38,226 bases of DNA from Jimgerdemannia flammicorona (taxonomy: Eukaryota): assembly GCA_003990765.1 (NCBI GenBank), contig RBNJ01000165.1, positions 1-38,226 of the forward strand. Direction: 5' to 3'. Made by a program: the position numbers and the translations under genes. This document shows, piece after piece, positions 227 to 37,982 of the stretch (its first letter is position 1; every line of letters begins with the position of its first letter). The notes below the pieces were generated by a model. The model was not told the DNA's origin, did not search any database, and saw nothing but the letters and a program-made list of their open reading frames with translations.

Positions 227-257
227 ATTGAGTAGATATTGTAGAAGAGACCCCAAC

Positions 258-2174: not shown

Positions 2175-2285
2175 ATTGTTAGTCGTCGGACACCAAAAAC
2201 ATTGTAAAAAGTGTTGTCTGAGTCTTGTATCACCCGAATGATACTGGTGAAAGGTTGCGTGTATACTGTTGTACTCAATTTCATG

Positions 2286-4405: not shown

Positions 4406-4478
4406 TCTCTCTCCACTACAATTCACGTTACACACACTTTACAACACACTTTCAAATCGTTTATTGGAGAAAGATATT

Positions 4479-6517: not shown

Positions 6518-6549
6518 AGGATGGGCTCTGGTATATATCATTATTCTTT

Positions 6550-10281: not shown

Positions 10282-10290
10282 GTTCTTTTA

Positions 10291-11484
10291 TTACTGGCCA
10301 TGATATTTCTTAAGTCAGTTTCGATGAATGGTGGTGGGGATTATTGTGCCTGAGGGTTTTCATAGCCAAAAGGTAGTTCCTTTTATATCTTGCACAAGGT
10401 AAGGTCCTTCCCACTTAGGCTCCAGTTTTCATGACCATGAAGCTTTAACCATATTCTGATACACTAGGACTTTGTCTCCTATCTTGATAATCTCTAAGAG
10501 TTTGTGGGTCTTTTCCACATTCTTCCATTGTAGTGTCTGCACCTTCGTTATGTAATCCTCAGCCTTCTTCCTGATTTAGTATAGTCTCTGTATTTCCATG
10601 TCCACATGTTTCCATATGGCATCTCCATTGGATGACAAGGTTCCCTGAAAACATTCTTCTCCGAATAGCATTTCTCAAGGGGTAAAGTGGGTACTTTGTG
10701 ATCGGATATCCCGAAGAGCAGATAATGCTATTGGTAGATAGTAATCCCAGTTCTTGTAGTTATCGCAGATCTTGGCAATAATGTTCTTGAGGGTTTTGTT
10801 GGTCCTTTCTACTTGTCCATTTCCTTGAGAGTGATATGCTGTGGTCCGAATATACTGGATCTTGTACTTCTTGTAGAGAACTTCGAAGAACTGGTTCACA
10901 AATTTGGTTCCTCTATCTGTAGTTACTTATGTTGGGGTCTTGAACTGGCAGATGATTTCCTTGTGGAAGAAATCAGCGATTGACTGTGCATTGGCTTCCA
11001 TAAGGGGTCCCACTTCTATCCATTTTGTAAAGAGGTCTATGATGATGATGATGTATCAGTTACCAGTCAAGGTCAAGGGTAGGGGGCTGATTATATCCAT
11101 TGCAATGTGGGTGAATGGTACTGGTTCTATGTGTGCTGATCCTGGGGCTTGATTTCGTTGGTCTTGATTCTGTTTCTGGCATTTGTCGCAGGTCTTGATG
11201 AATTGTCTGATATCTTCCTCCATCCCTGGCCACCATATTGTTCTTCTTGCCTTATCGTATGTGTTTGTTCCTCCTAGATGGCCAAGTTTGTATACTGATT
11301 TCATTGCTTGCTCCTTTTTGTATTCTGGTATAACTAGTAGTTTTCCTTTCTTCAGTGTTTCTCTATCAGTTTCGAATTTTTTCCATGTTCTGTTGATAAT
11401 CATTTGTGTCTATTCTTCCAGATGTTGGGGCATCTTTCGCTGTCCCAGGTATTTGATAATTCCATAGTAGAGCTCCTTATTCAT
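10291..11484 (-). pseudogene. D1 ORF2: stand-alone integrase (~397 codons, with stops)
   Basis: Own ATG at 11484 overlapping the ORF1 stop; GHLG..CDKC, IAMD, TDRG, QVERTN, KWEGPY; single frame to TAA 10293-10291. Confidence 0.85.
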
Positions 11485-14400: not shown

Positions 14401-15469
14401 GCTCTGTATCTTGGTCCATCTCTTTGGCTTGGCTTTCTGTAGCAGTTTTCATCTGCTTTTCCACTGGGTTCTTCTTGGGTCTTCCTAGTGGTCTCTTGTA
14501 GGGCTCTTTGCGAGCATCCTTCTTGGTGATCTGAGCAGGATAGGTCTCTCATTCTTCTTCATCAGAATCTCCAATCTCCTCAAAGGTAATTGTATTGGCC
14601 TGCTCCTTGTTTCATGTGGCATTGCTTGGTTGAGCCTTGCGCTTGGTTTCGCTCATGCATTCATAGGAGTAGTGGCCTTCTTCTCCACAAGTATAGCAGG
14701 TATCTTTCTTCTTGTCTGAGGTAGTGGCGAACTTCTGAACAGGGCGGCAGTCTCTTCCTTGAATTTCCTTTACCACATCTCCCAGGTGGGCAGTCATTTC
14801 AGCAAACCTTTTGGCGAGTTCCTCTATAGGGTCACTGTTCTTCTGCTGCTCTGTAGCTTTTGGCTGAGGTGTGTTTCAATTGATCATTGTGGTAGGGATC
14901 ACACTGGTTGCCTTCGGTGCCTTGATTCTGACTCCTGTGATCCTTTCCATTGTATAGTCTTGTGGATGTCTGGCTATCCAGTATCGCTGAGCATAGGTGA
15001 CCTTCTGTGGCAGATCCAGAATCACTGGTGATGAGCGGATGGCCATGGCTATTTCTGGGTAGACTCCTTTTATGAAGGTTGCTTCGGCTACTTGATCCCG
15101 GATGGCAGCAGCATAATCTGCAAGGATTATCTGATATTAAATTCTGGTATAGAATGTGTTTGGATGCTCACTCATTCCTTGGCATATTGTATTGAGCTGA
15201 TCCTTCAGGGCTTGCTTGATCTCATCTGTATAATATGTATTTCGGAGCCAGGTCTTCTGTGCTGTCAGTACAGCATTGGCATTATTTCCTGCATGGGTTG
15301 CGACTGTAAATGCTGCTCTGGCAGGGCCTTGTAGGCTGAAGGGCATGAGGGCTACTTGCTGTGCTGCTGTCAGGGTCCTTACAGTGGCATACTGCTCGAA
15401 ATCATCAATGAAGGTGATGATTGATTCATCTGAGGTATATCCATGGATTACTGGTGGTCTCATATCTAT
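11477..15469 (-). pseudogene. D1 ORF1 polyprotein gag-PR-dUTPase-RT-RNase H
   Basis: One frame throughout: CCHC knuckle CYTCGEEGHYSYEC, protease AIIDMRA (D2 retains DTG), dUTPase ~13414-12998 (TRSSLA, GVIDSDY, RGKKGFGSTG), RT YVDD, RH LQTDAS..NADFLSR; stop 11479-11477. Confidence 0.92.
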
Positions 15470-15562
15470 CTTGTCTGGATATTGGGACTTGGTTTGTATG
15501 GTTGTTCGGGTGGTGGTGGTTGTTCGTTGTTCAGCTTGAAAGTGAGGGATTCATCTTGAATC

Positions 15563-15580
15563 ACCAGCCAATAGGCACCA
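15563..15580 (-). promoter_or_regulatory. Putative primer binding site of D1
   Basis: TGGTGCCTATTGGCTGGT 3 nt after the LTR end; matches D3 site; cognate tRNA not identified. Confidence 0.7.
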
Positions 15581-15583
15581 AGT

Positions 15584-16070
15584 TATAACGTAGCAGATGC
15601 TTACTCTTGAAAGTATGTTGGATTTCTGTATCTTGAAAACTTGACTATTCTGACTCTTGCTGAGTCTCTTGAAGTTACAGGGGAGGGTGGGTGAGTTTGA
15701 AGTGTATCTGCCCACAGGCTTACTAGTTCCTTTGCTATCTCTTTGCTTTGAACTATTTCGATCTGAGATTTATTCACTCAAAGATACTGGGTTATTTATA
15801 CAAGTTTTGCTAGCTATGAGATGGTTACTGGGTTATATGGCTAAGTTATGAGTCATTTAACACTTTGCGAAATGTTTCAGCAGTTATGAAATGCTATACT
15901 ATATCAGGAAGCTCGATCTTGCACTTTGCGAAATATTTAGCAAGTTGCGAAATATTTAGCAAGTTGCGAAATTGAGGACTATTAACTATGTGGCTATACT
16001 ACTTTGGGACTGGGTGTGATCAAGTGTCGATTCCCTATTTCCTTCTTCCAAATCTGGTTATACCGTCACA
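15584..16070 (-). repeat. D1 5' LTR (487 bp, U3 type alpha)
   Basis: TGTGACG...CGTTATA termini; aligns along its length with 31254-31720; 19-bp tandem unit TTGCGAAATATTTAGCAAG at ~15926-15971. Confidence 0.9.
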
Positions 16071-16130
16071 GTATGCAGATTGCATATTATAGGAGAAACT
16101 TTTTTAAATATATATTTTATTTATAAATAT

Positions 16131-16617
16131 TATAATGGTTGATCCAAATTAGTAATATAAATCAGGAGAATAGACATTTGATTGCAGTACCTGAATCCAA
16201 TTCTCAAATATAGTATATTCTTATAAAAAGCAGTTATATTTAATATATGGAAACTTTAACAGATGTTAAAGTATTTACAGATATTAAAGTATTCACAGAT
16301 ATTAAAGTATTTACAGATATTAAAATATTCAAAGATATTAAAGTATTCACAGATATTAAAGAATGACTCATTGAAAATATAGTCATAACTTAGCTACCTT
16401 ATAGCCAGCAAACTTGTATAAATATCCTCAGTATCTAGAGTAAATAAACCTCAGATTGAAATAGTTCAAAGCAAAGAAAAAGTAAGAGAATTAGTAAGTC
16501 TGTAGGTAGATATACTTCAAACTCACTCACTTCTGCATCCTGAAGACTCTGTAGAGTCAAGTTTTCAAGATACAGAAATCTGACATACTTATATAGTTAT
16601 GTATCTACTACATTATA
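16131..16617 (+). repeat. D2 5' LTR (487 bp, U3 type beta)
   Basis: TATAATGG...CATTATA, the mutated form of TGTGACGG...CGTTACA; U3 resembles 37493-37740; followed by decayed PBS TAGTATCTATTGG. Confidence 0.82.
16259..16361 (+). repeat. 18-bp tandem repeat (~5.7 copies) in D2 U3
   Basis: Unit ACAGATATTAAAGTATTY starting at 16259, 16277, 16295, 16313, 16331, 16349. Confidence 0.9.
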
Positions 16618-18674
16618 ACTTAGTATCTATTGGCTTGTAATTTAAGATGAATCTCTCACTTTTAAGCTGAATAATAAACAATTACTACCATCTGAACAAC
16701 TATACAAATCAAACCAAGACATCTAGACAAGATAGATATAAGACTACTAGTATTCTATAATTATACTTCAGATGAATCAATCATCATCTTTATTGATGAT
16801 TTTGAGCAATATGCTACTATAAGGACTCTGACAGTAAGACAGCAAGTAGCCCTCATATCTTTCAGTCTCTGAGGATCAGCAAGTGTAGTATTTATAGCTA
16901 TAACCTATATGGGAAATAATGATGATGTCATGCTAGTAATACAGAAGATCTGGCTCTAAACCACCTATTAATAGATGATATCAAACAAGCTCTAAAGGAT
17001 TAGCTCAATACAATATGCCAAGAAATGAGTAAGAATCTATACATATTCTATATCAGAATCTGATATTAGATAATCCTTGCTGATTATACTAATGCTATCT
17101 AAGATCAAGTAGCTGAAGCAACCTTTATAAAAGGAGTTCACCTAGAGATAGCTATAGCTATCTGTTCATTATAAGTAGTTCTGGACCTACTACAAAAGGT
17201 CACCTATGTCTAGTGATACTAGATAGCTAGATATCTATAAGACTATATAATAGAGAGAGTCACTGAAGTTATAATTGAAGTACCTAAGGCAATCAGCATA
17301 ATCTCCACCATAGTGATTAATCAAAATACACCTCAGCTAAGAGCTAGAGAGCAATAGAGAAACAGTAACTCTATAGAGGAATTTCCTAAGAAGTTTGCCA
17401 AAATAACTGCTCATTTTGAAGATATGATAAAGGAAATTAGAGGAAGAGACTGCCACCTAGTTCAGAAGTTTGCCACTATCTTAGACAAGAAGAGAAATAT
17501 CTACTATATATGTAGAGAAGAAGGCTGCTACTTTTATAAATATATAAGCAAAACTAAGGATAAGGCTCAGCCAAGCAATGCTACTTGAAATAAGGAACAG
17601 GTCAACACCATCACCTTCAAGGAGATTGGAGAAGCCGATAAAGAAGAATGGAAAGCCTACTATACTAAGACTGTTAGGAAGAATGTCTATAAGTAATTTT
17701 ACAAAAGACCACCAGAGAGACTCAAGAAAAACCCTGTGGAAAAACAAATAGAGACTGCTATAGAAAGCCAAGTTAAAGAAATAAATCAAGATATGGAACT
17801 GAAATAGGCTGTTTAAGATATCATTTGAGGACCTACTCTAGTCAGTAAAGGAGAAAAGGAGAAAAAGCCTTGCAAATTTAAGACCTTTAAGTATGATATC
17901 TTCAAAGATCTCAGCCAATAAAAGGTCAATACAACTTTTGGCCAGCTGGTAGAAATCTCTATATTTAGATAGCAAATGAGATATGGACTTGCTAAGACAA
18001 CTAAGGAATGAGGTTGAAAGATAACTGAGACCAATAATGTTCAAGAAGACTCTGGAGAAGAAAGTGAATTCAATCACAAGACCTCTGCCTATATAACCTA
18101 TCAGATTGAAGATAGAATCTTTGAAGCCATTATTGATACTGGGGCAGAAGAATGTCTTCTCAATAAGAAAGCAGCAGACTGTCTAGATTGAGAGGTTGAA
18201 GAAGTAACTAAGTTGATATTCATCACAGCAGATAGTATAAGAGCTAAATCTCTAGAAAAGATCTGGGATATTTCCATCAAGTTTAGAAGAGCAACCATCC
18301 CAAGAGATGTGATCATAACTAATACTACCAACTATAATATCCTCATTGGCAACTAGTGGCTTCATAAAGCCAGGACAATAATTGACCTAAAAGCCCAAAA
18401 GATACAGATCATTTACTGAGATCAGAAGATGTAAATTCTCATTAATATCAACAAAGAAGTACTATCTGAGATAGAGGAGAAAGAAAGCAAGTAAGAAGAA
18501 GTCTATATAATGACTACTCAGAAAAATTAAAGAGAACTGGTGTAAGAAGATTGCAGAAGAATATACACTACAAGAAGTCTGTCTCTATAGAATTAAGATA
18601 TACTGTATAGAGTATATTAATGATTGCTACCAGTGTATCAGCAGTATCAAGAAGATCTATATAAAAAAAGACAG

Positions 18675-19890
18675 TTGTCAGTAACTCCCTCTGCCTCCTA
18701 CAACCTTGGGACCTCTCCCACAGCCCCTTGTCAATATAAACATATCTCTCATCAACAAACTCTAAGTGTGTTAACTCCACATATACCTTTTAAGCCTTTG
18801 CCCTACACTCCACCACATCACTCAACTCCTCCAGTGCCTCCAACAGGTCCTCTTCCTCCTTCTCACTTCTCTTTACCCTAGTCACCTTACATACAAAGAC
18901 TCTCCACATTATTACCAGAGACCAATCACATGCCTTGTCAGTAGCCTCTCTCTCTGCCAGTCAAATCCAGACATCAACATTCCCTGTCCAGAAGGTTATT
19001 CCTTTTCAGACCCTAAACCCTATATCAACTAACTCAGCCATGACCTCCTCAACTCTCCTCCTCATCTCCACAGTAGTTACCATAAGCACTTTCTTCACCA
19101 GGAGCTACACCACTCTGAGATTCCATCTCAAGTACTACTATTAGGATACACACCTCTTCAACTATCAACCCAGCCTTCAGCACCTCCTCTAGCAGCCCTG
19201 CCCCTCAAAGTCCACCTCTACTTCTTCTAGGTTATTCAGGAACTTAACAGATGCTGCACCTTCCACCTACTTCACAATCAGCCCCAGGACTATTTTTGCC
19301 ATCACTACTAAGCCCCTGAAGCACAGAGTGACTGTGAATTCTGAGATTGACTTCTTGAGTAATAGTGCCACCACTAGTTCCATTACACTATTAGCCAGAT
19401 CACTAGGCCTCATGCTTTTCCCACTACTTAGTCCACCCATCTAGATTTTTTTCCTGATTACCTATCATGCTCTCATCAGCAGTCACTTCCTCAGCTGATA
19501 CACCACCAGTCCCACTACTCTGGCCCCCCAGAAGGACACTCTCTTGAGGCTGTTACTTTGCAGGCTTTGGTATCTCCTTGCTTCTTTTCAGCCAACTCTC
19601 TAGTCCAGCTTCTTGCTGACCTCCCTTCATCTTATCTACAAAGCTTGCTCTCTCAGTCTCTTGCCAGCCAGCACTACCTCCTCCCCTACTATGTCCACCT
19701 GTCAGCAGGCCCCTCATGCTTCCCCCCAAGCTGGGGCCTCTTCTTACATACTGCCAGTTGAATGCTGCCCAGTATATACCTCAGAATACTCATCAGTCAC
19801 TGTAATACTAGTAGTTTTTCTCCAAGAACTATATTGTAAGTATTGCCAAAAGGTTGTATAACCTGAATATTATCAGAGAAAGTATCCTGG
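18675..19890 (-). mobile_element. L1/Tx1-like LINE copy C: 5' UTR and first part of ORF1 only, degenerate
   Basis: Nucleotide similarity to LINE-A ~1010-2260 (e.g. gtgactgtgaattctgagattgacttcttgagtaat); YVYIDKGLWERSQGCRRQRELLT matches A/B ORF1; boundaries approximate. Confidence 0.85.
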
Positions 19891-22800
19891 TTATTGGATA
19901 TTATCATCTATAGTAAGACACTAGAAGAATATCTGCTGTATATCTAGCAGATAATAGAGAAGCTAAGGAAGTATGATCTTTATATTAAGCCTAAGAAGTA
20001 TAAGTTTACAGAAATCAAAATATCCTATCTTGATGATATCATCAACTAAGATGAAACACACACACAGACCCCCTCAAGATTCAAGCAGTAGCAGTATACC
20101 CAAGGCCCACCACTATCATGAAAGCCCAAGCCTTTATAGAACTTGCCTCATACTACTGCAGATTTATCAAAGAATTCTTTAACATTATAGACTCAATCTA
20201 CAAACTCAATAAAAAGGATGTCAAGTTTCAATAGATTAGCAGGTAATAAAAAGTATTTGATGAACTCAAGATCAGACTAATCAAAGCACCCATCCTCAGA
20301 AGACCAAATTGAACTCAGGAATTTATCCTGTAGACAGATATAAGTATGTAAGAACTAGGAGCAGTTCTGGTCTAAAAGAAAGACAATGTAGAATATGTCA
20401 TTATATATCTCAGCTGAGGAACTTAAGAAGCTGAAAAGGAGTATAAATTCTATAAGTTGGAATATCTTACAGTTATCTAGGCTATAGAGAAGTTCTACTA
20501 CTATCTTATCAGAAGATACTTTACTATCCAAACAGACCACTCAGCTCTTACTTAGCTACTAACTATAGGATAATCTAAAGAAATCTATGTCAGGTGGATT
20601 ATAAAGTTGTAAGCTTATAATGTAACCATTATACACTATCTCAGAAGAACTAATACCAATACTGATACCCTCTTATAGATAGTCCAAAGAACCCCCAACC
20701 AGTAAATCAACTATGAATAAAGAACTCTACTATAGAATTATTATCTATCTGAGATAGCAAAAGATGCCCCAACATCTGAAAAATAGACAAAAATAATTAT
20801 TAATAGAATATAGAAACAATTCAAAACTGATGAAGAAACATTACAAAAAAGAAAGCTACTAGTTATATCTAAATATAAGAAGGAGCAAGTAATGAAATCA
20901 GTATATGAACTTGACTATCTAGGAGGAACAAATATATATGATAAAGCAAGAAGAATAATGTAGTGGCCAGGAATAGAGAAAGATATCAGACAATTTGTCA
21001 AGACTTATAACAAATGCCAGAAATAGAAATAAGATGAATAAGATCAAAGCCCAGAATCAGTACATATAGAACTAGTACTCTTTGCATGTATTACAATGGA
21101 CATGATTTACTCTCTACTCTTGACTTTTGACTAGTATCTGATATATCATTGTCATTATAGATCTTTTTACAAAATAAATAGAGGCAGGACCCCTCAAAGA
21201 AGCTAATATACAGTCAATTGCTAATTTCTTCTACAAAGAAATCATCTGCCAATTCAAGACCCCATTGCAAGTAACTACAGACAGAGAAACAGAATTCATG
21301 AATCAGTTCTTTGAGGTTCTCTACAGGAAGTATAAGATCCAGTATATTTGGACTACAGTCTATCACCCTCAGGAAAATGGACAAGCAGAAAGGACCAACA
21401 AGACTCTCAAGAATATCATCATCAAGATCTGCAATAATTATGAAAACTGAGAGCACTATCTGCTAATAGCATTATCTGCTCTCTGAGATATCCAATCACA
21501 AAGCACCCATTTCACTCCTTGAGAGATGTTTTTTGGAGAAGAAAGTTCTCAAGGAACCTTATCATCTAATAGAGATACTATATGGAAACATATAGACACA
21601 GAGATATAGAGACTATACCAAATCAGAAAGAAGGCCAAGGATTACATAACCAAGGTATAGGCACTATAACAGAACAATATAGAAAAGATTCACAAGCCAT
21701 TGTTGGCAAGGGTGTTGAGCACTGGGCACGGGAAGCAGCTATCACTGGGCCAAAGGGAAATGGGCAGCAGTGGTAGCGAAGACTATTACTTTGATTTTTT
21801 TTTTTTTTTTGTCTGAATATCTTTGATGATATTCTATCTCCATATTTTTCGAGGTAATTGTGACGCAGTCGGAATTTATATTAATACAGCGTCTTGTCCA
21901 GATAAATACTAATCCAGTCATGCACACTACAAAAACGAGTGCTTGTGCCTGTGCTTGTCGAAGGGCACAATAGACATGTGTAATTACCGCTGGGAGGGGA
22001 CCACAGATGGTTCTACTGCGGAAAGGCGAGCAAATAATTTTGAGAGATGCGATAGATTTTTACCTGGTTGCGACTTGGTTTTTCGGAGACTTGGTCGTTT
22101 TGTAACCTTGCTGATTGCAGTCATGATTTTTGATGGTATCATCGGAACTTTGTCAACGGCTTCGGAATTGTAAAGTAGTTCACAAAATTTTGTTGTCAGT
22201 ACACGCAATTAAAGACTAAATTACAAATAAGGCTGTGCTCGTTTATAGTGATTTATATTAACTGCAAGAAACGATTTGCACTTCTATGCCGCATCACGTG
22301 CGAAATGGTATCATGTGCCGTGCGAGTTGATTAAAAAATCCCTTTTCCACTTCACACAGCTATCTCATTTCTTTACAATGACCCAACTTACACCGCCATC
22401 TGCATTCTCATATTGCCCTACGACACCGTACAGGACATCGTGATCACTGGAAAAATCCAAAACTGGCTATCATTTACAGGAGTTAAATTCTGCTAGTGTA
22501 TATGGCGGACTGGTCGAGTAAAACAGTGCTGTTGTCCACGAATGGAAGGTCGCAAAACTGGTGAGAAGAACTATTGAACATAAAATTTGAAAACTTTTCA
22601 AGCTCTCTAAATATGTTATCGATGGCATTTCTCATCAAATTCCCAGACGATGTAGTGACCAGTATTAGCTCCAGTCATCTCATCCATATTTGCAATTCTG
22701 TAGTTATTCGGTGTCGGAATTTCTGAGCGCCGCACAAAAACAATAGGGCCACGTTAGCGCGTTGATTGAGAATGACAAGAATCGGGGATTAGTGTTATTG

Positions 22801-24336
22801 TCAAACTTAAAGAACAAGAGATGCAACATTATTGGGAGCATAATAACGGACACGCAGAGGTAGGAGGAAATTGACACGGAGTTTGAACAGCTCCTGGAAT
22901 CTTTTCAAGTTGCGTTGGGCATCAGCGAGGAAAAAGAGGGACCCGGACCTTGCTAAGCATCCCTTACATGTCGAGACCAGATCGCTGATACTACGGCAGA
23001 GGTCGAGCAGCAAAACTTCCACATCGACGGACTTCTGTGAAATCCGGAAGCTATCCTCGCCCATGTGCAGGTTGCTCGTGCCAAATCTGCCCCAAAACCA
23101 TGCGGAATGACGAGATGATTCATCAGTGCGAAGAAGAGCGCGAACACGTCTGGGCAAGCTAGGAAATATATCGAACACAAGTTGAACGGTGCAAATTTTA
23201 GAGGCTCAAAGGGCAGAAAAATCCGGGTGCAATAAGGAAGAATGAGGGATTGCACGGTGTGCGTAGCTCAAAAGATGAGGACTAGATTTCAGGAGGTGGG
23301 GTGGATTTGGAGCCAGTCGAGTTAGTTAGGCGAAGGAGTGCGATATATATGGAAGATATGAGAAATCGCTAGCGATTTAGCGAATTGCACAAGATGATAC
23401 TATGTAATAGACAGGCCGATGATGAAATCACTGGCATATTTCAAACAGTTTGACTCTGGTACAAGCAGCTAGGGATACGGCTGAAGTTATACATTGTACT
23501 GCGCTTGGCGGAGCTCCTAAAGTCGTCAAGGAGAATATGGTTCGAGGTTCATGCTCCATTGGTAAAAGGGTCTGCTTCCGGCATTCAACCTGCGGGTGAC
23601 ATGTGGGCTTGTAGCCTCCATTTTTTTATTTTATTTTTAAAAAATATCTCTGTTGTTTCGCGTCTCTATCAAACATTTTAATCATTTTTCAGCCTCTACA
23701 AAATAAAAACAAACCCTTATTAAACAGATCTGCGATGCATATCAATCCTTGCTCTTTTATATTCATTTTATGACGGTGAAATCAGAACATCACAGTAGCC
23801 GGCATCCAGCTGCCGCACGCTTAGGCAAGAGGGATCATGGGCATTATAACAAAAAAGATCGGAGAACCTTGGTGAGAAGAAACTTTTCCAACTGGATAAC
23901 TGCGAAATTGTCGTTGAAAACGTCGGGCAAGGAGGCAGCCATTGATGACTTTTCGGGAGGAGCAGTAAGTGAAGCCATATTCGGAACTACCGGCAAGGAA
24001 CTAACAGGGGACGGGTCGATAGGATTTGTGTGGGAGATCATTGAACACTCGGAGACAGATTGCTCATCCCAACCAATTATTTCTAAGGTGGCTAGCCCGG
24101 CCGAGAGGAGATAAGAGGTTCAACTGCCTTTCCCAGTGTTGTTGTCAGGCGCTTTTTGTGATATGGTTACAATGCAGACGAAACCGTCTTGATACCGGCT
24201 CATTCGAAAGTGTTGAATTTCATATTTGTGTGGATTACATTACATTATTACACCCTTTATGATAATTTAAAGGAAAAGCATAGTTCGGTCTTTTAATCTT
24301 GGGGATGCACAGTTATCTCGCTAAATATAAAACCTT

Positions 24337-27300
24337 TCATAACTTCCTAACCCCAACATGCCTCCACGAGAGCCGGGAAGTACTCAAGTTGCTGCTCATG
24401 GTGCTCCTTTCGGAAGATCCCCTTCTATTCAGTCCTGGGCGACGGGTAGGGGATCTGTTGTGCGGACCGCCTTCAGCCGTCTTCAAACTTTTAGTGGAAA
24501 TTTCAAGTTTAGAAGAAAAACAGAAGCCACATGAATTAAATTTTTTGTACAAAACCAGATGATGGTAAACTTGCCTGATATGATTTGTTGATGAAGTTTT
24601 CGGAATTTCCAATGCAAATTGTGTGCAAGGACCTGAATTATTTTCTTCATCGATACACTCGGGCTCTTCGGGGATGCTGTCCAGCCATTCTTCATCAGCG
24701 ATCGCTGTCTCTATACATTCAAGATCTTTCAACACTTCGTCAATTGTTGGTCGCATTTCGGGGTCAGGGTTGCAGCATTTCTTGTAGATATCTGAGTATT
24801 CAGTTGGTGTGTCAGCGATTGGTTCTTCGCGGACAAGATCGCAAGCTTCGGGAGCATGCATTGCATTTTCACTAGGAGAAAATCTTGAAATAAGTCGCCA
24901 CAGAAGTTTTCCAAGGCAGTAAATGTCGGATTTTTGTGAATAAGGTATATTGGAGTTCTTGAGGGCTTCAGGTGGGCGATATTCAATGGGTCCGTAGATG
25001 TCGCCTCTATACGTTTTAAAGTGCTCCACAGTATTGCTTATACCGAAATCAATGATCATCGGATTAGAATTATCTGTACCAAGAAACACAATGTTTCCTG
25101 GGTGCAAATCATTGTGAATCAAGCCTGCTTTATGAATCACTTGCAACCTGCGAGTGATCCCTATAGCAATCTGCCACACTTTCAACCAAGAATTTGGCGG
25201 AGACTTGTGGATGACTTGAATAAGATCGCCACCCTCAGCGTAATTCATCACCAGAATATAACTTTCGGTTTTATCGTCCTTCGATAACCCTATGACTGTT
25301 GGCAATTCTACACGGCGGGAATTGTTGCATAGCTGAAGATAGATGTTGACTAGTAACTATTTGCAAGAAGATGCAATATTATAATATAAATTATATGTAA
25401 AAATGAAGCTTAAGAGCTGTAACTGGATAATCCGTACCCACCTCATGTCGCAGTTGATCTGTTGTGATGCTACTTTTTTTCAATATCTTCAAAGCAACAA
25501 ATTTTATCCGTTTCTGACAATCATATACTGCGGCTTTGTGTACAATAGCAAATCGACCTGCGCCTAATTTCTCCAACAGCGTAAATTTGTCATAAGGTAT
25601 CCAAACCATGTAAGCTGCAAGTTCCACCATTTGGAGAGTGTCTAGAAACTTCAAGAGCTTGTCCTCATTATTGAAAAACTTGGATTTTGGTTTTGAAAAA
25701 GGGCCGCTGTCACGTTTTTTGAGAATATCTTGAATTCGATCAAAGATATCTGTGGCTTTTGAGGGCATGTCAGGTTGAGCAAAAGGCGAAAGACATAAAG
25801 CTGTCCATTGAATAAAAAAAAAAAATTAAAATATAAATATAATGAGCTGTATTTCATCATACATGTAAAACCAAATAATTACACTCGGTTCCAACATACT
25901 ATTGAGATTAGACTTGTTCAAGTTTCGTTTTAAACCAACACTGAGTATGCATGCGATTTGATTACTGATTTTATTTCCTAAAATAAACAAGAGATGAATG
26001 AGAAATATACAGATCATGACATAAAGCCTACCAGGTCGAACCAAATTTCACAATTCTAACGTACCAGTAATATCAAGCACTTCCAGGGTCATGTTCAGCA
26101 TCAGAGATTCGGTCAGTGCATGTGCTCCCTTATCATTAATATTGGTGTCTAATTATGGATAAGATGGATAAGAAAATTTGCCCAGGTTATAAGCTAGAAC
26201 CCTCACATATTGCATGCCAAATTCATATGGTTCCAATATACATTTGAGATTCAGCTTGGTCAGGGTCGTGTTCGAGTTGAGAGATTTGGCTAGAGCAACT
26301 ACACCCGGATCACCGATATCATTGCCTAAAGATAAATATATGATGAATGAGCCAAAAATATATTATCAGCTGAAACTCATCATGGGGCTTAAAACAGTTT
26401 CCACTGTTGTAACATACGATTGAGATTCAGCATAGAAAGGGTTGTATTTTTCCGCAGAGATTCGGCCAATGTGCATGCCCCCTCTGTACCAATGTTATTA
26501 GCTGAAGATAAACAGATATCAAATAAGCAATTGTAAACTAGAACTCATGCAACAGTTGCAAAAGATGGTTCATATTTTTTCAACATACATTCAAGAATAA
26601 GAATAGTCAGGGTCATGTTCTCCTTCAGAGACTCGGCTAGTATGCATGCTCCATTAACACCAATGTTGTTGCCTGAAGACAAATAGAATGGTTAAAAATT
26701 GTTAGTAGGATTTCATAAAATGGTTACAATAAATAGTTTACATAATTTCAACTTACCAATGAGTTCCAATGTGGTCAGGGCCCTGTTTCGCTTCAGCGAA
26801 TCAGCCAGTGCTCGTGCTCCCTTGGCACCGATATTGCTGGCTGAAAAAGAACAAGAGATTGTTAATGAAACACAAGCAGATGGTAACCTGCAACTCAACA
26901 CGCGGTAGTAAAACAGTTGATACGGCTTTAACGTACAATTGAGGTTCAGTGTGATCAAAGTCGTATTAAGCTTCAGAAATTTGGCAAGTACACATGCTCC
27001 CTGTACGTCGACATTTTTGGCTGAAAATGAACAGGAGATAGTAATCAAACACATGCAGTTTGCGGGCTGGAATACACCGACAGTAGGACACATCTAAAAT
27101 ATACCTCTGTATTTCAACGTGGTCCGGGTTGTGTTGTTCTTCAGCGATTCGATCAGTGCACGTGTTTTTTCGCAACCGGCCTTTTTATCTAAGCATCAAT
27201 GAAACAGTCAATTATTAGTTCGATTTCCAAGAAAACTATATTTCTAAACAACTAAATCAAAGGTGCTCATAGAGAAATTTTGAATATTATTACGAATTTC

Positions 27301-29492
27301 AATTTAAAATATAACATTTGCTTTTATTATAAGGATCATAAGGAAATCTCATAACTCATCAATATAACGCGAACAGCACATACCTGCATATTCATTTAGC
27401 CACAAATCTAAATTTGGCGTTTGGGGAGAGTGGGCAGCCGACCCTTCCGGCATTTGAAGAATGTTGGTGGTTAACGATTCCGGTTGGGGGGAGGGTGTTT
27501 GGGATGTGCTGGAGATAAACACTTCCGTCTGCTGAGAGGGCGTTTGGAGGATGTTTGCATTCAACGCTTTCGGCTGCGAGGAGGGCGTTTGGGGCTTGTT
27601 GTCGGTCGACGCTCCCCGCTGCCGAGAGCGCATTTGGAGGGTGTTGGTCGACGCTTCCGTCTCCTGAGAGGACGTTTGGGGGATGTTGTAGATCGACGCT
27701 CCCGGCTGCAGGGGAGGTATTTGGAGGATGTTGGCCGCCAACGCTTTCGGTTGTGGGGAGGGTGTTTGGGGGATGCTGGAGATCAACGCTTTCGTCTTCT
27801 GAGAGGGCATTTGAGGGGTATTTGCATTCAACTCTTCCGGCTGCGGGGAGGGCGTTTGGGGGTTATTGTCGGTCGACGCTCCTGGCTCTATGGAGGGCAT
27901 TCGGAAGATATTTTCGGTCAACGCTTCCGTCTGCTGAGAGGAGGTTTGGAGGGTATTTGCATTAAACGCTTCCAGCTGCGAGTAGGACATTGGGGGGTTG
28001 GTGTAAGCCGACGCTCCTGGCTGGAGGGGGGTTATTTGAAGGGTGCTGGCCGTCAACGCTTCCGGCTGCGTTTGGGGAGTGGAGGTCAACGCTTCTGGCG
28101 AAGGGGAGGGCGTTTGGGATGTGTTGGCGTTCAATGCTTCCGCCAAGGAGGAGGGTTGCTGACGAGGTCGTGGTGGAAATAGGGGCGCTTCGACATCGGA
28201 AGACAAGAAGGAATGCTGGGTCGGTGAGCAAGCAGATTAAAGGCAAACGGACAGAATATGTCAGTGGCGTATACCTGCTATGGAAAAAGAGTGTATTTGC
28301 AAACGATGAAATGACCTACTTTAAGCAATTCCCTGGCGGAAGCGCGCTGTATATGATCTGGATCCAAACATCGATCAACGAAGCCCGCCAGCAGGCTATC
28401 CATATTCTGGGGATAATGAGGCCGACCTTCGTCGATGATCTTTCGCTTGAGCTAATTTGAGGTGCACAGAAAAATGTGAATTTATTAATCATATAATGAA
28501 ATGCATTCTGCAACATCGACAAATAACATTTGAAAACAAACCTCTTCCTCCTCTAGGCGATCGTCTTCGAATGGCGCCTTGCCGTAGTTGAGAATCTCGA
28601 GGACGACGATGCCTAGTGCCCAAATGTCAACATTTTGTTTGATGAACTCGCCTTTGCAGATTTCGGGTGCCCAAAACAATATGTCGCCAGCCACTTCGGA
28701 TGCCGAATTTACAAGTGGTTTCAGGGAACTGAAGCCGAAGCCACCTGAATGAGGGATTTAGTAGGTGGAGGTGGGGTTTAGAGGAAAAGTAGGAATGATT
28801 AGAATGTGTGAGGCATCGGCCGGGTGGTACCCAGATTTGTCGGATGAAATAAATGGGTAAGGTATATACCGATCACGATGGCGTTGTCTACGCCAAGGAA
28901 GACGTTTTCGCTTTTGATGTCGCGATGGATGTAACCGTGCTTATGAATTTCCGCGAGGCTTGATACGAGCTGTGAGCCGGATGGTAGGAATGATGGACGA
29001 GACAAATTATTTGGGGTAACACACAAAGCCACGTAGCACGCAACAGGGAGTACAAAGAACTACACTGACCCTGTTGAGGATGAAGACAATTTGCGCCAAA
29101 GTAACGCAGTTTTCGAAACAGTACTGTTTCAGGGTCCCGCCGTCGTAATAGGGCGTCACGAGAAAGGCGTAGCAATTGTGGATGTAGATGCTGTGTAGTC
29201 GCAGAATATTTGGGTGTAGCGCGCATTTGGTCATGGCGTTACATTCGTTTTGAATTAGCTTATTGGGTATTGCGAACGGTTTTCCGTCCTTATCTCGCTC
29301 GATGACCAGGTACTTTTTGATGGCCACGTTCCGGCTCGCATCGCCGAACTCGCGGCAGTGATACACCTCACCCTGTGCCGAGCGCCATGTGGGTCTTTTG
29401 GCGCTGAGGCCACTATAAATGGGGTGCGGGTTGGACCGATCTATGCGCACGCCGGGCACCGTGAGAATAAATAATGGTATAAGCGTCGACAT
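24337..29492 (-). CDS. Spliced host gene: kinase(-like) domain 1 + 15-aa repeat linker + 8 RI-type LRRs + kinase domain 2 (~1244 aa; both ends uncertain)
   Basis: Exons 29492-29070, 28969-28870, 28744-28542, 28451-28320, 28215-27384, 27188-27105, 27020-26937, 26840-26757, 26672-26589, 26501-26418, 26325-26242, 26148-26065, 25977-25900, 25800-25442, 25356-24337; all introns GT-AG and phase-compatible. Kinase 1: VAIKK, HRDIKSEN, GFG, WAPE, DIWALG. Kinase 2: GAGRFA, VALK, HNDLHPGN, DFG, YRPPE, SDIYCLG, RPT. Further 3' introns and an exon toward ~23844 are possible. Confidence 0.8.
25900..27188 (-). repeat. Array of eight LRR exons (seven of 84 bp, one of 78 bp; all phase 1-1)
   Basis: Consensus N.IG..GA..LA.SL..N.TL..L.L, ribonuclease-inhibitor/NLRC3-like 28-aa repeat; one repeat per exon. 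Confidence 0.9.
27420..28142 (-). repeat. Coding minisatellite, ~45-bp/15-aa unit, ~17 degenerate copies
   Basis: ALNANTSQTPSPSPE, ALTASTLQITPLQPG, ASTDNNPQTPSPQPE, ALNANILQTPSQQTE etc. in exon 5. Confidence 0.88.
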
Positions 29493-29822
29493 GTAGTCCT
29501 TTATAAGGATCAATCTCGAGGGCGAAAGTTAATGTGTCAAAATCGGCGGGTGGCTTGGGCTACGTCACTAAATTTTTGAATGGAACCTGGCTTTGATTGC
29601 ACGCCTACCTTTCTGCTAGAGCGTCTTCTACCTTGACTGAAGATTAAATAAATTTGTCAGTATATTTCATTTAGGAAAATTAACAACTTATTAATATTTA
29701 TAATTTGCTATTTTTATAAATGAAAATTTAATATGCAAAATATATATCTCAGGAGTCTAATTATTTTTTAATATCTATTCAAAATTAATATTTTTAAATA
29801 ACTTAATTATTATTAGTATAAT

Positions 29823-30422: not shown

Positions 30423-31253
30423 TTATAAAAAAAAAAAAAAAAAAAAAAAATAGTTATGGATTCTTCTATATATTTATATAATATAGACAATTTTGACAGT
30501 TATTTATTAGAAAGATTTTAGAGTATAGGCAATTTCTATATAATATAAATGGTTTGGTTGGTTTCTCAAATAGCAGATGATGGTAATTTTCAGAATTGAA
30601 ATTATCCAAGTTAGATAGATAATAGTAATTTTTTCAGATAAGAGTAACTTTTACTGATTGTATAGATTTAGTACAATTCTTAAATAGTATAAATTTAGTA
30701 GATTTTTTAAATGATATAAATTCAGCAAACTTCTTAAATAATTTGGATTTCTATATAATATAGTAGATTTGGCAAATTTTTCTAAATAGTATAAATTATT
30801 AAATATAGATTTTAAAAATTTTTGAATTGTATGGATTCTGTATAATATAGTAGATTGGTAGATTTTTTAAATAGTAGATGATAGTATAATGAAATAGATT
30901 TGGTAGATTATTCTCTAATAGTATAGATTCTATATTTAACAAATTTCTCTAAATATTATACCTAAGTTTTTCACTTAAACTTTAGGTGAATAATTTAGAC
31001 TTTATCTAGTAAGTAGTTTTTTAAGTTCTTCTGACTTTATCTAAACTAGACCAAATTGTCAGATTTTTTCTTTATATCAGAAAGTAAACTAGAGTAGAAA
31101 AAAATAAAGCTCATAACTTCTAGCAGTAGCTCTTAGCAGATATTTCTCTTAAGTATTGTAATCCTCTATAAATTAAGTAGCTCTTAGTAGATATTCTTCT
31201 CCTAAGTATATCAGATAATAGACTTTTACTTTTTGATTAAGATTATAATATAC

Positions 31254-31720
31254 TGTGATGGTATAGCCAGATTTGAAAGAAAGAAATAAGGAACAGACAC
31301 TTGATTGCACCCAGTCCCAAAGTAGTATAGCCACATAGTTAACAGTCCTCGATTTCACAACTTGCTGAATATTTTGCAAAGTGCAAGATCAAGCTTCCTG
31401 ATATAGTATAGCATTTCGCAACTTGCTAAATATTTTGCAAAGTGTTAAATGACTCATAACTTAGCCATATAACCCAGTAACCATCTCACAGCTAGCAAAC
31501 TCATATAAATAACCCAGTATCTTCGAGTGATAAACCTCAGATCGAAATAGTTCAAAGCAAAGAGATAGCAAAAGAAACTAGTAAGCCTGCAGGCAGATAC
31601 ACTTCGAACTCACCCACCCTCCCCTGTAATTTCAAGAGACTCTGTGAGAGTCAGAATAGTCAAGTTTTCAAGATATAGAAATCCAACGTACTTTCAAGAG
31701 TAAGTGTCTGCTACATTACA
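31254..31720 (+). repeat. D3 5' LTR (467 bp, U3 alpha)
   Basis: TGTGATG...CATTACA; TATAAATA at ~31504; matches D1 LTR minus about one 19-bp unit. Confidence 0.92.
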
Positions 31721-31723
31721 ACT

Positions 31724-31741
31724 TGGTGCCCATTGGCTGGT
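31724..31741 (+). promoter_or_regulatory. Putative primer binding site of D3
   Basis: TGGTGCCCATTGGCTGGT 3 nt after the LTR. Confidence 0.7.
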
Positions 31742-31822
31742 GATTCAAGACAAATCCCTCACTTTCAAGCTAAACAATGAACAACTGCCACTATCCAAAC
31801 TAAGCCCCAATACCCAGACAAG

Positions 31823-34800
31823 ATGGACATGAGACCACCAGTATTCCATGGATATACCTCAGACAAATCAATCATTACCTTCATTGATGATTTCGAGCAG
31901 TATGCTGCTGTAAGGACCCTGACAGCAGTACAGCAAGTAGCCCTCATGCCCTTCAGCCTACGAGGCCCTGCCAGAGCAGCATTCACAGCCACAACCCATG
32001 CAGGAAATGATGCCAATACTATACTGACAGCATAGAAGACCTGGCTCTGAAATATATATTACACAGACAAGATCAAGCAAGCCCTGAAGGATCAGCTCAA
32101 TACAATATGCCAAGGAATGAGCAAGGATCCAAACACATTCTATACCAGAATTCAATATCAGATAATCCTTGCAGACTATACTGCTGCTATCCAAGATTAA
32201 GTAGCCAAAGCAACCTTCATGAAAGAAGTCCATCCAGAAATAGCCATGGCCATCTGCTCATCACCAGTGATTCTGGATCTGCCACAGAAGGTCACCTATG
32301 CTCAGCGATACTGGATAGCCAGACATCTACAAGACCATATAATGGAAAGGGTCACAGGAGTTAGAATCAAGGCACCCAAGGCAACTAGTGTGATCCCTAC
32401 CACAATGATCAATCGAAACACACCTCAGCCAAAAGCTACAGAGCAGCAAAAGAACAGTGACCCTATGGAGGAACTCACCAAGAGGTTTGCTGAAATGACT
32501 GCCCACCTAGGAGACATGGTAAAGGAAATTCAAGGAAGAGACTGCCACCCTGTTCAGAAGTTTACTGCCACCTCAGACAAGAAGAAAGGTACCTGCTATA
32601 CTTGTGGAGAAGAAGGCCACTACTCCTATAAATGCATGAGCAAAACCAAGTGCAAGGCTCAACTAAGTAATGCCACACAAAACAAGGAGCAGGTCAATAC
32701 AATTACCTTTGAGGAGATTGGAGATTCTGATGAAGAAGAATTGGAGGCCTATTCTGCTCAGACCACCAAGAAGGATGCTTACAAAGAACCCTACAAGAGA
32801 CCACCAGGAAGACCCAAGAAGAACCCAGTAGAAAAGCAGATGGAAACGGCTACCGAAAGCCAAATGGAAGAGATGGACCAAGATATAGAACTGGAACAAG
32901 CAGATCAAGATATTATCCGAGGAACCACTCCAGCCAGTGAAGGAGAAAAAGAAAAGAAGCTTCGCAAGACCAAGACCTTCAAGTATGATATCTTCAAGGA
33001 CCTCAGTCAACAAAAGGTCAATGCAACTTTTGGTCAGCTCACAGAAATCCCAACATTCAGACAGCAAATGAGGTTTGGACTTGCAGAAACAATGAAGGAA
33101 CAAGGATGGAAGATAACTGAGGCCAATAACGTTCAAGAGGACTCAGGAGAAGAAAGTGAGGACAATTGCAAAACCTCTGCTTATGCAATATGCCAAATCG
33201 AAGATAGAATCTTTGAAGCCATCATTGATATGGGAGCAGGAGGATGTCTCCTCAGCAAGAAGGCAGCAGACCACCTAGGTTGGGACGTGGAAGAAGCAAC
33301 TAAGCTGGTGTTCATCACAGTCGATAGCACAAGAGCTACACCTCTGGGAAAGATCTGAGATATTCCCATCAAGATTGGAGGAGCAACCATCTCAGTAGAT
33401 GTAATCGTAACCAATGCCACCAACTATGACATTTTCATTGGCAATCAATGGCTTCACAAAGCCAAGGCAGTAATTGATCTCAATGCCCAGAAGATGCAGA
33501 TCACCTACTGGGGACAGAAGATACGAATTCTCATCAATGTTAACAAAGGAGTCCTGCCCGATATGGAGGAAGAAAAGAGCGAGCAAGAGGAAGCTTATAT
33601 GGTGACTACTCCAAAGAAGAAGAAAGTTGGATAGATGAGTAAAGAAGAATGGTGCAAGAAGATGGCAGAAAGCTATGCACCACAAGGAGTCTGCCCTTAT
33701 GGGATCAGGATGTACTATATGGAGCATTTCAATGATTGCTACTAGTACACCATTGGAATCAGGAAGATCCACCAGGCAAGAAGGCAGAAAGCTCTCGAAA
33801 TACAGATCAGGAAAGAAGAGAAGGAGGAAGATGATGAACCACTAGCCCTCCTGGAGGACAGTGACGATGAAGAAGAAATCAAGGTCAAGATTCGAAAGAT
33901 TCACCCTGATGCAGTCTTGCCAGAATACAAGTCAGAAAATGCAGCCAGAATGGACATCACTACAGTAGAAGAGACTGTACTGGAACCCCAGACAACCACC
34001 CTACTCACAACTGGACTGGAGATGACCATCCCAAAGGAACATGTCAGGATTCTCAAGACAAGAAGTAGCCTGGCTAGAAGTGAAATTACAATTGAAGGAG
34101 GAGTCATCAATTTAGACTACACCAGAGAAATTCTACTCATTGCTAGGAATTACAATCCTACAATCCCATTTCCAGTCAAGAAGAAGGACCGATTGGTACA
34201 AATGTTGATCTTTCCGATCCTACAACCAAAGATCATAGAAGTTAAGAAGCTGGAGGAAACAAGAAGAGAAAAGAAAGGATTTGGATCCATAGGAAGAGGA
34301 GTATTTGCCAACACCAAGATCACTGAACTTGAGCATAAGAAGGAGGAAAACACAAGCAAGCACAGCTACACCATCGGAAATGAATTTCTACTCAAGAAAG
34401 AACTCAAGAAAATACTCAACGAATTCGAAGATGTCCTTGCCACAGATTTCAAGGATATCAAAGGAAAGACCCCACACTACTATCACGAAGTAGATACTGG
34501 AGACACTGAACCAATTTATCAGAAGGCAAGACCTGTCCCGCCAGCCTAATGAGAATGGCTCAGAGAAGAAATCAAGCAGATAGAAGAAGCTGGCATCATT
34601 AAAGAAGCCAGCAGCCCCTGGTCCTCACCTGTTGTACTAGCCCCAAAAAAAGGCAGCAAGCCTGGAGAATTCACCCAAGACTCTGTGTCAACTACAGAAA
34701 ACTCAACATAGTTACCAAGAAGGATCACCAATCACTGCCCCTCATCAATGACATCCTCATAACACTGGGAGATGAAGCACAATACTACAGCACCTTGGAC

Positions 34801-35814
34801 TTATACTCAGGATTCCGCCAAATCAGACTCACAGACATGGCAAGTGAAAAGTCAGCTTTCATCACTCTAGATGGAACCTATGTCTACCTACAAATGCCAT
34901 TTGGAATGTGCAATGCACCAGCAAGTTTTCAGTGAATGATGAACAAAATCTTCTGCTATGACATGGGAAGATGGATGATGGTTTACATTGATGACGTAAT
35001 CATCTACAGCAAGATACCTGAGGAACATTTGCAGCACATACAGTAGATAATGGAGAGACTAAGACAAAATGGCCTTTACATCAAACCCAAGAAGTGCAAA
35101 TTCGCAGAAATCGAGATCTCCTATCTCAGCCACATCATCAACTAAGATGGAACATACATGGACCCCCTTAAGATACAAGCAGTGGCAGCATACCCAAGAC
35201 CCACCACTGTTATTGAAGCCAAAGCCTTTATGGGACTCGCCTCCTATTATCACAGATTTATTAGAGGATTTTCTAATATTGCGGGACCAATCTATGAACT
35301 TAACAAGAAGGATACCAAGTTTCAGTAGACTGGAAAACAACAAAAAGCATTTGATGAACTCAAGGTCAGACTGACCCAGGCACCCATCCTCAGAAGACCA
35401 GACTGGACTCAAGAATTCATCCTATAGACTGATGCAAGCACACAAGGACTAGGAGTAGTCCTAGCTTAAAAGAAAGATAAAGTGGAGTATGTCATCACAT
35501 ACCTCAGCCATGGAACCCGAGGAGCTGAAAAAGAATATGAATCCTATAAGTTGGAATGCCTTGCAGTCATCTGGGCTGTAGAAAAGTTCCACTACTACTT
35601 GGCTGGAAGACACTTCACTATCCAAATGGACCACTCAGCTCTCACCTGGCTACTGACAACTAGACAACCCAAAGGAATCTATGCCAGATGGATAATAAAG
35701 TTGCAAGCTTATGACGTAACCATCGTATATCACTCTGGAAGAACCAATGCCAATGCAGATGCCCTCTCATAGACATTCCAAAGGACCCCACCCCCACAAA
35801 ATCGCCATAAATAA
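31823..35814 (+). pseudogene. D3 ORF1 gag-PR-dUTPase-RT-RNase H
   Basis: MDMRPPVFHG start; CCHC knuckle; AIIDMGAG; dUTPase ~33878-34296; YIDD at ~34984; 1-bp deletion near 34675 relative to D1; homologous stop TAA 35812-35814. Confidence 0.92.
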
Positions 35815-37009
35815 GGAGCTCTACTACAGAATTATCACATACCTGGGACAGCAAAAGATGCCCCAACATCTGGAAGAATGGATACAAACGATTATCAACA
35901 GAACATGGAAACAATTCGAAACTGATGGAGAAACACTGAAGAAAGGAAAACTACTAGTCATACCAGAACACAAGAAGGAGCAAGCAATGAAATCAGTACA
36001 TGAACTTGGCCACCTAGGAGGAACAAATACATATGACAAGGCAAGAAGAACAATATGGTGGTCAGGGATGGAGGAAGATATCAGACAATTCATCAAGACC
36101 CGTGACAAATACCAAAAACAGAAATAAGACCAAAGAAATCAAGCCCCAGGATCAGCACACATAGAACCAGTACCATTCGCCCATGTAGCAATGGATGTAA
36201 TCGGCTCTCTACCCTTGACTTTGACTGGCAACCGATACATCATCATCATTGTAGACCTTTTTACAAAATGGATAGAAGCAGGACCCCTTATGGAAGCCAA
36301 TGCACAGTCAATCGCTGATTTCTTCTACAAGGAAATTATCTGTCAGTTCAAGACCCCAACACAAGTAACCACAGATAGAGGAACAGAATTTGTGAACCAG
36401 TTCTTTGAAGTTCTCTACAAGAAGTACAAGATCTAGCATATTCAGACTACATCATATCACCCTCAAGAAAACAGACAAGTAGAAAGGACCAACAAAACCC
36501 TCAAGAATGTTATTACCAAGATCTGCGATAACTATGAAAACTGGGATCACTATCTGCCAATAGCATTATCTGCTCTTTGAGATATCCGATCACAAAGTAC
36601 CCACTTCACCCCTCGAGAAATGCTGTTTGAAGAAGAATGTTCTCAGGGAACCCTATCATCTAATGGAGATGCTGTATGGAAACATGTAGACATGGAAATA
36701 CAGAGACTACACCAAATCAGGAAGAAGGCTGAGGATTACATAACAAAGGTGCAGATACTATAACGGAGGAATGCGGAAAAGACCCACAAACCCTTAGAGA
36801 TTATCAAGATAGGAGACAAAGTTCTGGTGTATCGGAATATGATTGAAGCTTCATGGTCACGAAAACTGGAGCCCAAGTGGGAAGGACCTTACCTTGTGCA
36901 AGATATAAAAGGAACCACCTTTTGGCTACGAAAACCCTCAGGCACAATCATCCCCACTACCATCTACCGAAACAGACTCAAGAAATACCATGACCAGCCA
37001 ATAAAGTAA
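35807..37009 (+). pseudogene. D3 ORF2 integrase
   Basis: Start is ATA at 35807 where D1/D2 have ATG; HELGHLG, VAMD, TTDRGTEF, VERTN, KWEGPY; no chromodomain seen. Confidence 0.85.
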
Positions 37010-37492: not shown

Positions 37493-37976
37493 TGTGACGG
37501 TTGATCTGAATTAGTAACATGAAACAGGGAAATTAAACATTTGATCATAGTACCTGAACCCAATTCCCAATATAGTATAGCCTTACAAAATAGCAGTCAT
37601 ATTTCACAAGTGTAGAAACTTTAGCAACCAAAGAAATTCTATAGATGTAAAATATTTCATGATTGTAAAGATCTTAACAAATGTAGAGAATTTACACTTG
37701 TAGAAATTGACTCACAGAAAACGTAGTCATAATTTAGCCACCTTATAGCTAGCAAAACTGTATAAATAACCCAGTATCTTCAAGTGAATAAACCTCAGAT
37801 CGAAATAGTTCAAAGCAAAGAGATAGCAAAGGAACTAGTAAGCCTGCAGGCAGATACACTTTGAACTCACCACCCTCTCCTGCAACTTCAAGAGACTCTG
37901 CGAGAGTCAGAACAGTCAAGTTTTCAAGATACAGAAATCCAACGTACTTTCAAGAGTAAGTGTCTGCTACGTTACA
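37493..37976 (+). repeat. D3 3' LTR (484 bp, U3 beta)
   Basis: TGTGACG...CGTTACA; distal ~230 bp near-identical to the 5' LTR, proximal ~250 bp resembles the D2 LTR instead. Confidence 0.92.
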
Positions 37977-37982
37977 ATATAT

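Follow-up and report, generated by a model that had tools for sequence, protein, structure and literature searches.

The question raised by the locus described here is whether the exons scattered over the minus strand from 29492 to 24337 in a 38,226-nt stretch of Jimgerdemannia flammicorona DNA (GenBank assembly GCA_003990765.1, contig RBNJ01000165.1, positions 1 to 38,226; hereafter the window, meaning the whole stretch) encode a single protein and, if so, what kind of protein this would be. J. flammicorona (Endogonales) is a root-associated fungus from an early-diverging, plant-associated lineage living with plants and endobacteria. A preliminary description of the window, based on its letters alone, had proposed a single gene fusing two kinases of different type around a set of leucine-rich repeats (LRRs), as a candidate tandem-kinase sensor. 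This observation is real and is refined here, with an architecture that is probable and one join, that between exons 5 and 6, that is unproven. The evidence leans towards a soluble four-part signalling protein of 1215 amino acids (aa), made up of a probable pseudokinase (kinase 1), a linker, eight LRRs and an intact second kinase (kinase 2).

Evidence on transcription was derived from the contigs of two coded runs, X1 and X2, aligned to the region. Both runs are labelled 'RNA?' and were treated as transcript-like solely on account of contigs that skip introns; these do so with CT..AC ends on the plus strand and therefore behave as transcript assemblies. A script rebuild of the locus, complemented with one contig-supported intron, gave one open frame of 16 exons and 15 introns (Table 1), with no stop and no frameshift in 3648 nt. 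The 14 introns proposed initially, mostly of the GTATGT or GTAAGT type, all run from GT to AG in compatible phases and leave a stop-free frame. The single open frame was thus upheld, while its length of ~1244 aa was not, since a fifteenth intron, absent from the earlier model and found in contigs of both runs, removes 29 residues (1215 + 29 = 1244). At least eight of the 15 introns (introns 3, 4, 8, 9, 10, 13, 14 and 15) are directly represented in contigs among the joints listed, with joints for introns 3 and 4 and the exon 14/15 joint (25356/25442) in both runs and joints for introns 8, 9 and 10 in X1. Introns 1 and 2 are backed by tblastn of P0122 (annotated ortholog) and P0123 (paralog). 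The contigs extend to 29507 at the 5' end (X1 record 5 = 29244..29507) and to 24254 at the 3' end, the 3' untranslated region (UTR) being followed to 24254 by X1 record 1 and to 24286 by X2 record 6. The X2 records listed for the gene itself are identical or near-identical to the window, save record 12 with 10 other letters; the X1 records carry 1-10 letter differences each, the same changes as are found in P0122. Stretches without contig cover, among them intron 5 in both runs, exon 6 in X1 and exons 10 and 13 in X2, were counted neither way.

Among the public models, P0121 (J. flammicorona, 504 aa, 'kinase-like domain-containing protein') is 100% identical to exon 1, P0122 (572 aa) is a 98% identical J. 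flammicorona protein from another strain, and P0123 is a 284-aa paralogue. The existence of two J. flammicorona assemblies is stated in PMC12574304. Exon 3 (28542-28744), which encodes the activation segment from GFG to APE, is dropped from P0121, where exon 2 is joined to exon 4, and is retained in P0122. At the other end, P0121 reads into intron 5 and stops at the in-frame TGA 27349, and P0122 uses an acceptor inside intron 5 (exon start 27320) and ends in ANVIF-stop. The public annotation is therefore wrong in at least two ways, P0121 being without exon 3 and the LRR and kinase 2 exons being missing from the retrieved models.

Pfam was run on contiguous pieces of the open reading frames (ORFs) which jointly cover all 16 exons, the LRR domain being judged exon by exon. 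The Pkinase family matches the ORF pieces of kinase 1. Among solved structures its ortholog P0122 matches PAK1 best (E 2.6e-30) and then PAK2-7, BRSK2 and AMPK. For the paralogue P0123 the matches are to PAKs and MST kinases. Pfam gave no match to a p21-binding domain (PBD). On this count and on the loss of DFG described below, kinase 1 falls outside the canonical PAKs and appears, from its sequence, to resemble a PAK-fold domain. The VAIK lysine, the alpha-C glutamate, the HRDIKSEN motif of the first description and APE are all kept. In place of DFG stands GGFGFS, whose GFG is aligned with the PAK1 DFG, and of the three glycines in the degenerate glycine loop a single one is kept. These two changes make kinase 1 a probable pseudokinase, or else an atypical kinase, in which the Mg-binding Asp has been lost, and since the same GGFGFS occurs in P0123, the GFG change is old and conserved. 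CASK, a CaMK-family MAGUK (membrane-associated guanylate kinase) with GFG in place of DFG, carries the same substitution.

In kinase 2 (~residues 859-1130), all catalytic motifs are kept, namely a GAGRFA loop, the VALK lysine, the alpha-C Glu, the previously noted HNDLHPGN, DFG and PPE. Pfam Pkinase matches it at 1e-25, and among solved structures it comes closest to Nek2, TAK1, MLK1 and RIPK1 (about 1e-13 to 1e-15). The proposed membership of a fungal tyrosine kinase-like (TKL-like) family is borne out by the top three Atlas clusters, which are of Mucoromycota (0.98-0.99), the nearest comprising Mucoromycota kinases of 270-320 aa without LRRs, and by the H-x-D-L-H-P-G-N loop of the Mucoromycota TKL-like expansion, which is found in P0141, P0142, P0124, P0127 and P0001. 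The complete motifs of kinase 2, together with GFG for DFG in the alignment of kinase 1 with PAK1, are compatible with the 'regulatory or decoy' part suggested earlier for kinase 1. The two domains, one PAK1-like and the other Nek2/TAK1/RIPK1-like with Mucoromycota clusters, are ~28% identical to each other, and this difference in type, which had been remarked from the outset, points to fusion rather than internal duplication.

Eight repeats of 28 residues, the number first described, lie between the linker and kinase 2, each on a phase-1 exon of its own, 84 nt long for the first seven and 78 nt for the last. Their consensus is NNIGxxGACALAESLKxNTTLTxLNLx, with four invariant positions (L, L, N and L). 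The Pfam family LRR_6 was matched by two of the eight single exons (best E 4.4e-05), and against solved structures the repeat profile matched 5irm (E 1.5e-12) and 5irl (E 3.2e-12), then the axonemal LRRC34 and DRC5. We take 5irm and 5irl to be NOD2, the entries themselves being titled 'Uncharacterized protein'. LRR_6 clusters of the Atlas scored 0.96, which is a lead only. By their period and LRR_6 pattern (28-29 residues, L..L.L..N.IG..GA..LA..L..N) the repeats are of the ribonuclease-inhibitor type. At the DNA level the LRR exons are 41-65% identical to each other and are therefore not recent copies. As a separate observation, contig depth exceeds 8000 in both runs in the bin of exon 9 (within 26242-26672, exons 9-11), and many joints between repeat units, with 33-letter variable inserts, are seen over exons 9-11. 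The extreme depth and the inter-unit joints suggest that many other highly expressed transcripts with similar LRR_6-type repeats are present in those samples.

The linker is built on a tandem DNA period of 45/90/135 nt, equal to 15/30/45 residues (Tandem Repeats Finder, 65-70% matches), and no Pfam family was found in it. A plus-strand ORF over the linker (27475..28182) was set aside as a by-product of the stop-poor repeat, every splice signal being on the minus strand. Between the window and X1 there are 27 coding differences, of which 11 are synonymous and 16 non-synonymous, and the coding indels total 3 nt. The linker has six differences, all of them non-synonymous, exon 14 has three synonymous and six non-synonymous, and exon 15 four and one, exons 15-16 together standing at 6:1. 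This small set of strain differences fits a kinase 2 under constraint and a linker that evolves fast. The absence of a transmembrane segment, NACHT and NB-ARC reported earlier was reproduced by Pfam and hydropathy, the sole hydropathy window of >=1.6 being the core helix of kinase 1 (residues 129-147), and Ras, Roc and COR were likewise without a Pfam match. The protein would be cytosolic.

Both the join of the LRRs to kinase 2 and that of the linker to the LRRs had been part of the original proposal. The first (25900 to 25800) was recovered directly in X1 record 1, a contig of 1576 nt in which it is given one base off, as 25801/25901. Beginning in the 3' UTR, this contig takes in exons 16, 15 and 14, reaches exon 13 by a 99-nt skip and has 192 letters upstream of exon 14. 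The second (27384 to 27188) was not among the joints listed. The contigs of both runs stop matching exactly at donor 27384: X1 record 2 starts precisely there, and X2 record 9 matches 27384..27617 and continues with 183 letters past 27384 that are non-colinear with the intron. Following this donor there are eight AG acceptors, seven of which lead to a stop in 2-18 codons, and only 27188 stays open to the next donor. Exon 5 would thus be joined to exon 6 within a single transcript, and a single gene spanning both kinases is judged fairly probable.

To place the architecture among related proteins, kinase 2 was scored against 1.84 billion representatives, 73 proteins being found at E <=1e-30. 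The relatives named are from Gigaspora rosea, G. margarita, Diversispora epigaea, Endogone sp., J. flammicorona and one dictyostelid. A Pfam scan covered 31 of the 150 relatives listed, taken from the best-scoring proteins of <=1400 aa, plus P0197 and P0226, a sample biased to long proteins, given that summing the scores raises proteins of several domains. In 28 of these 31 there are at least two kinase domains, and the further modules seen include Sel1, ankyrin, MLKL_N, TLDc, Ras/Roc and MORN. Tandem kinases are therefore common among the Glomeromycotina relatives of kinase 2 and, taken alone, not new in these fungi. Among the 31 scanned relatives no PAK-like domain was present. Proteins of 456-594 aa were left out of the word-based kinase 2 search, so that a public model of LRR plus kinase 2 of that size is possible. 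A metagenome scan with kinase 2 returned five weak loci with 29-51% identity over short stretches, and was uninformative.

Several observations weigh against the four-part protein. The bridge between exons 5 and 6 was seen in no contig among the joints listed, and P0121 and P0122 both end the first gene within intron 5. LRRs were found in 0 of the 31 relatives by Pfam and in 0 of 286 by BLAST with the LRR segment or the repeat hidden Markov model (HMM), which is weak evidence because the LRR domain did not itself serve as a query for collecting relatives and those of 456-594 aa fell outside the search; with no LRR-bearing relative among them, the architecture may not be conserved. The closest relatives of kinase 2 (P0141, P0142, P0127 and P0226) have a single kinase preceded by the same leader, and kinase 2 could therefore begin at ATG 25768. 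Lastly, the N-terminus MSTLIPLFILTVPGV (29448-29492, first 15 codons) is hydrophobic, unlike that of P0123, and NxT is present in six of the eight LRRs, features from which a secretory route may be possible.

The first two of these points are those which would be explained by two genes, one comprising kinase 1 and the linker and ending in intron 5, the other comprising the LRRs and kinase 2 and having a promoter and start of its own. That the frame is common to both sides of 27384/27188 would then be a coincidence, a phase match being expected by chance alone in ~1 in 3 cases, or a relic of an older fusion. Donor 27384 is, however, in use, and the X2 contig leaves the intron aside. Furthermore, exons 6-8 are without Met, so that past exon 5 an in-frame Met first occurs in exon 9, at residue 667, and going upstream from exon 6 the frame runs into a stop at 27198..27196. 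A separate LRR protein could therefore start no earlier than residue 667 and would be short of three well-preserved repeats, exons 6-8 still keeping the LRR consensus and an open frame. Two genes are accordingly considered unlikely, and the single gene is retained.

The leader shared with single kinases bears on a different possibility, that a stand-alone kinase 2 from ATG 25768 is the main downstream product and the LRR exons lie in the 5' UTR or are used in a minor isoform. P0141 (Endogone), P0127 and P0226 (both Jimgerdemannia) and P0142 all have the leader motif and a start 55-130 residues before the kinase domain, as this would predict, yet the X1 contig links LRR exon 13 to exon 14 in frame, and eight stop-free phase-1 exons with an LRR consensus would be unexpected in a UTR, which makes it very unlikely as an alternative to the four-part protein. 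Least credible is a recent, non-functional chimera produced by retrotransposon-driven rearrangement and transcribed but decaying, since the setting of the gene in a ~9.5-kb island between inverted gypsy-like copies (91% identical) with more copies nearby, the exclusively non-synonymous linker differences (0:6) and an architecture not found among the relatives examined are countered by the lack of any stop or frameshift in 3648 nt, by another strain keeping kinase 1 and the linker open with its indels in frame, by mostly synonymous differences in the kinase 2 C-lobe and tail (6:1, exons 15-16) and by LRR exons that are old (41-65% nt identity), with no fresh duplication.

The 'TE-dense' setting given to the gene in the preliminary description (TE, transposable element) was confirmed, with retroelements on both flanks (Table 1). 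Upstream of the gene, before the right-hand retroelement, the segment 30001-31000 has a G+C content of 19%. At the other end of the window, positions 1-10000 have a G+C content of 52-58% and an extreme GC skew which flips near 4000 (-0.53 to +0.49). Long ORFs overlap there on both strands, and the only recognisable features are LINE-like (long interspersed nuclear element) endonuclease and reverse transcriptase (RT) fragments and an RNase H fragment.

Table 1. Exons and disputed or added introns of the J. flammicorona kinase-LRR-kinase locus, and retroelements of the window (LTR, long terminal repeat).
Feature	Position	Strand	Description
Exons 1-4	29492..29070, 28969..28870, 28744..28542, 28451..28320	minus	Kinase 1, residues 1-286
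Exon 5	28215..27384	minus	P/Q/T/S-rich repeat linker, ~residues 287-563; covered by contigs of both runs
Intron 5	27383..27189	minus	195 nt, GTATGT..TAG; disputed join
Exons 6-13	27188..25900	minus	Eight LRRs, residues 564-785, one per exon, all phase 1
Exon 14	25800..25442	minus	Pre-kinase leader and kinase 2 N-lobe; includes ATG 25768
Exon 15	25356..24575	minus	Kinase 2 C-lobe (HNDLHPGN, DFG, PPE) and start of acidic tail
Intron 15	24574..24488	minus	GC-AG, 87 nt, in frame; joint 24487/24575 in X1 (side 239) and X2 (side 202)
Exon 16	24487..24254	minus	Basic Ser-rich tail, stop TGA 24339..24337, 3' UTR to at least 24254
Gypsy-type copy	10287..16074	minus	dUTPase (within pol), RT, RNase H and integrase signatures
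Gypsy-type copy	31250..37005	plus	Inverted, 91% identical over 5.8 kb to the first; same signatures
Older retroelement copies	16398..21695		77-79% identical
LINE-like element	endonuclease 6511..7335, RT 8280..9260		
LTR pair	31478-31721 / 37735-37977		92% identical

What was observed comprises the exons, the types of domain, their motifs and the greater part of the splicing; beyond this, a mechanism for the four-part protein can be proposed. The LRR arc may bind a protein or a small ligand, or may restrain kinase 2, and binding of the ligand would alter the activity of kinase 2. The part of kinase 1 could be that of scaffold, allosteric partner or bait; the linker, ~275 residues long, disordered and rich in Ser/Thr, may be a substrate. 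A role as an immune sensor is speculation, drawn by analogy with known systems.

In the case of NOD2 with RIPK2, the likeness lies in the match of the LRR profile to 5irm/5irl and in the match of kinase 2 to RIPK1/TAK1, whereas neither NACHT nor CARD is found here and the LRR and kinase lie on one chain. This likeness is at the level of repeat type and is not one of orthology. The central NACHT or NB-ARC of NOD-like receptors (NLRs) gave no Pfam match. ROCO/LRRK proteins similarly combine LRRs and a TKL-group kinase in one soluble protein, but the Roc GTPase and COR domains that lie between LRR and kinase in that family were not found here with Pfam, and the LRRs are of the ribonuclease-inhibitor type. 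Unlike the LRR receptor kinases of plants and oomycetes, which combine a signal peptide, an extracellular LRR and a single transmembrane helix with a cytoplasmic kinase, the protein shows no transmembrane-like window between the LRRs and kinase 2.

Plant tandem kinase proteins (TKPs) such as WTK1/Yr15, RPG1 and WTK3 would resemble the protein in having two kinase domains of different origin in one soluble chain, one of them predicted to be active and the other dead. Tandem kinases on one polypeptide would rest here on a frame which is open over all exons and on the observed LRR-kinase 2 join, the link to kinase 1 hanging on the exon 5-6 join, and the pairing of a kinase with a pseudokinase is predicted from the motifs. 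In PMC6170490, a fusion origin, as proposed here, is given for 40 of 92 plant TKPs, 175 of 184 domains are derived from receptor-like kinases (RLK/Pelle), and the original 92 are without other domains. The domains encoded here are PAK-like and Mucoromycota TKL-like, not RLK/Pelle, and eight LRRs lie between them, so that the plant likeness drawn earlier fails at two of the defining features given there (RLK-derived domains and no other domains). Moreover, the apparently dead domain comes first here, and a long repeat linker precedes the LRRs between the kinases. The protein thus resembles NOD2-RIPK2 and the plant tandem kinase receptors in design only. The Glomeromycotina multi-kinase models P0139, P0140 and P0143-P0145 (G. 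rosea, G. margarita and D. epigaea) are uncharacterised gene models of the same TKL-like family as kinase 2 (E 1e-53 to 1e-69), with two to four kinase domains, often together with Sel1, Ank, MLKL_N or TLDc; their kinase domains are copies of one type, as opposed to the two types found here. Multi-kinase proteins are therefore already known in the family, while a PAK-like, apparently dead kinase and LRRs ahead of such a kinase were not seen in the sequences compared.

To our knowledge, LRR-based receptors are held to be almost entirely lacking in fungi. Only nine fungal proteins with both LRR and kinase domains are counted in PMC2939053, and fungal NLRs use WD40, TPR, ANK or HEAT repeats according to PMC10197012 and PMC12258605. 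No description of a fungal kinase-LRR-kinase protein was found in the literature, the supplementary list of fungal LRR-kinases of PMC2939053 not being covered. That the protein is a cytosolic innate-immune or symbiont-sensing receptor without the NLR nucleoside triphosphatase (NTPase), in which a NOD2-type LRR is combined with a RIPK/TAK1-like kinase and a dead PAK-like bait, is unlikely. If true, it would be a one-chain convergent counterpart of both NOD2-RIPK2 and the plant tandem kinase receptors. If its parts are joined as proposed, the protein would be a concrete candidate, open to test, for sensing through LRRs in an early-diverging fungus that is associated with plants.

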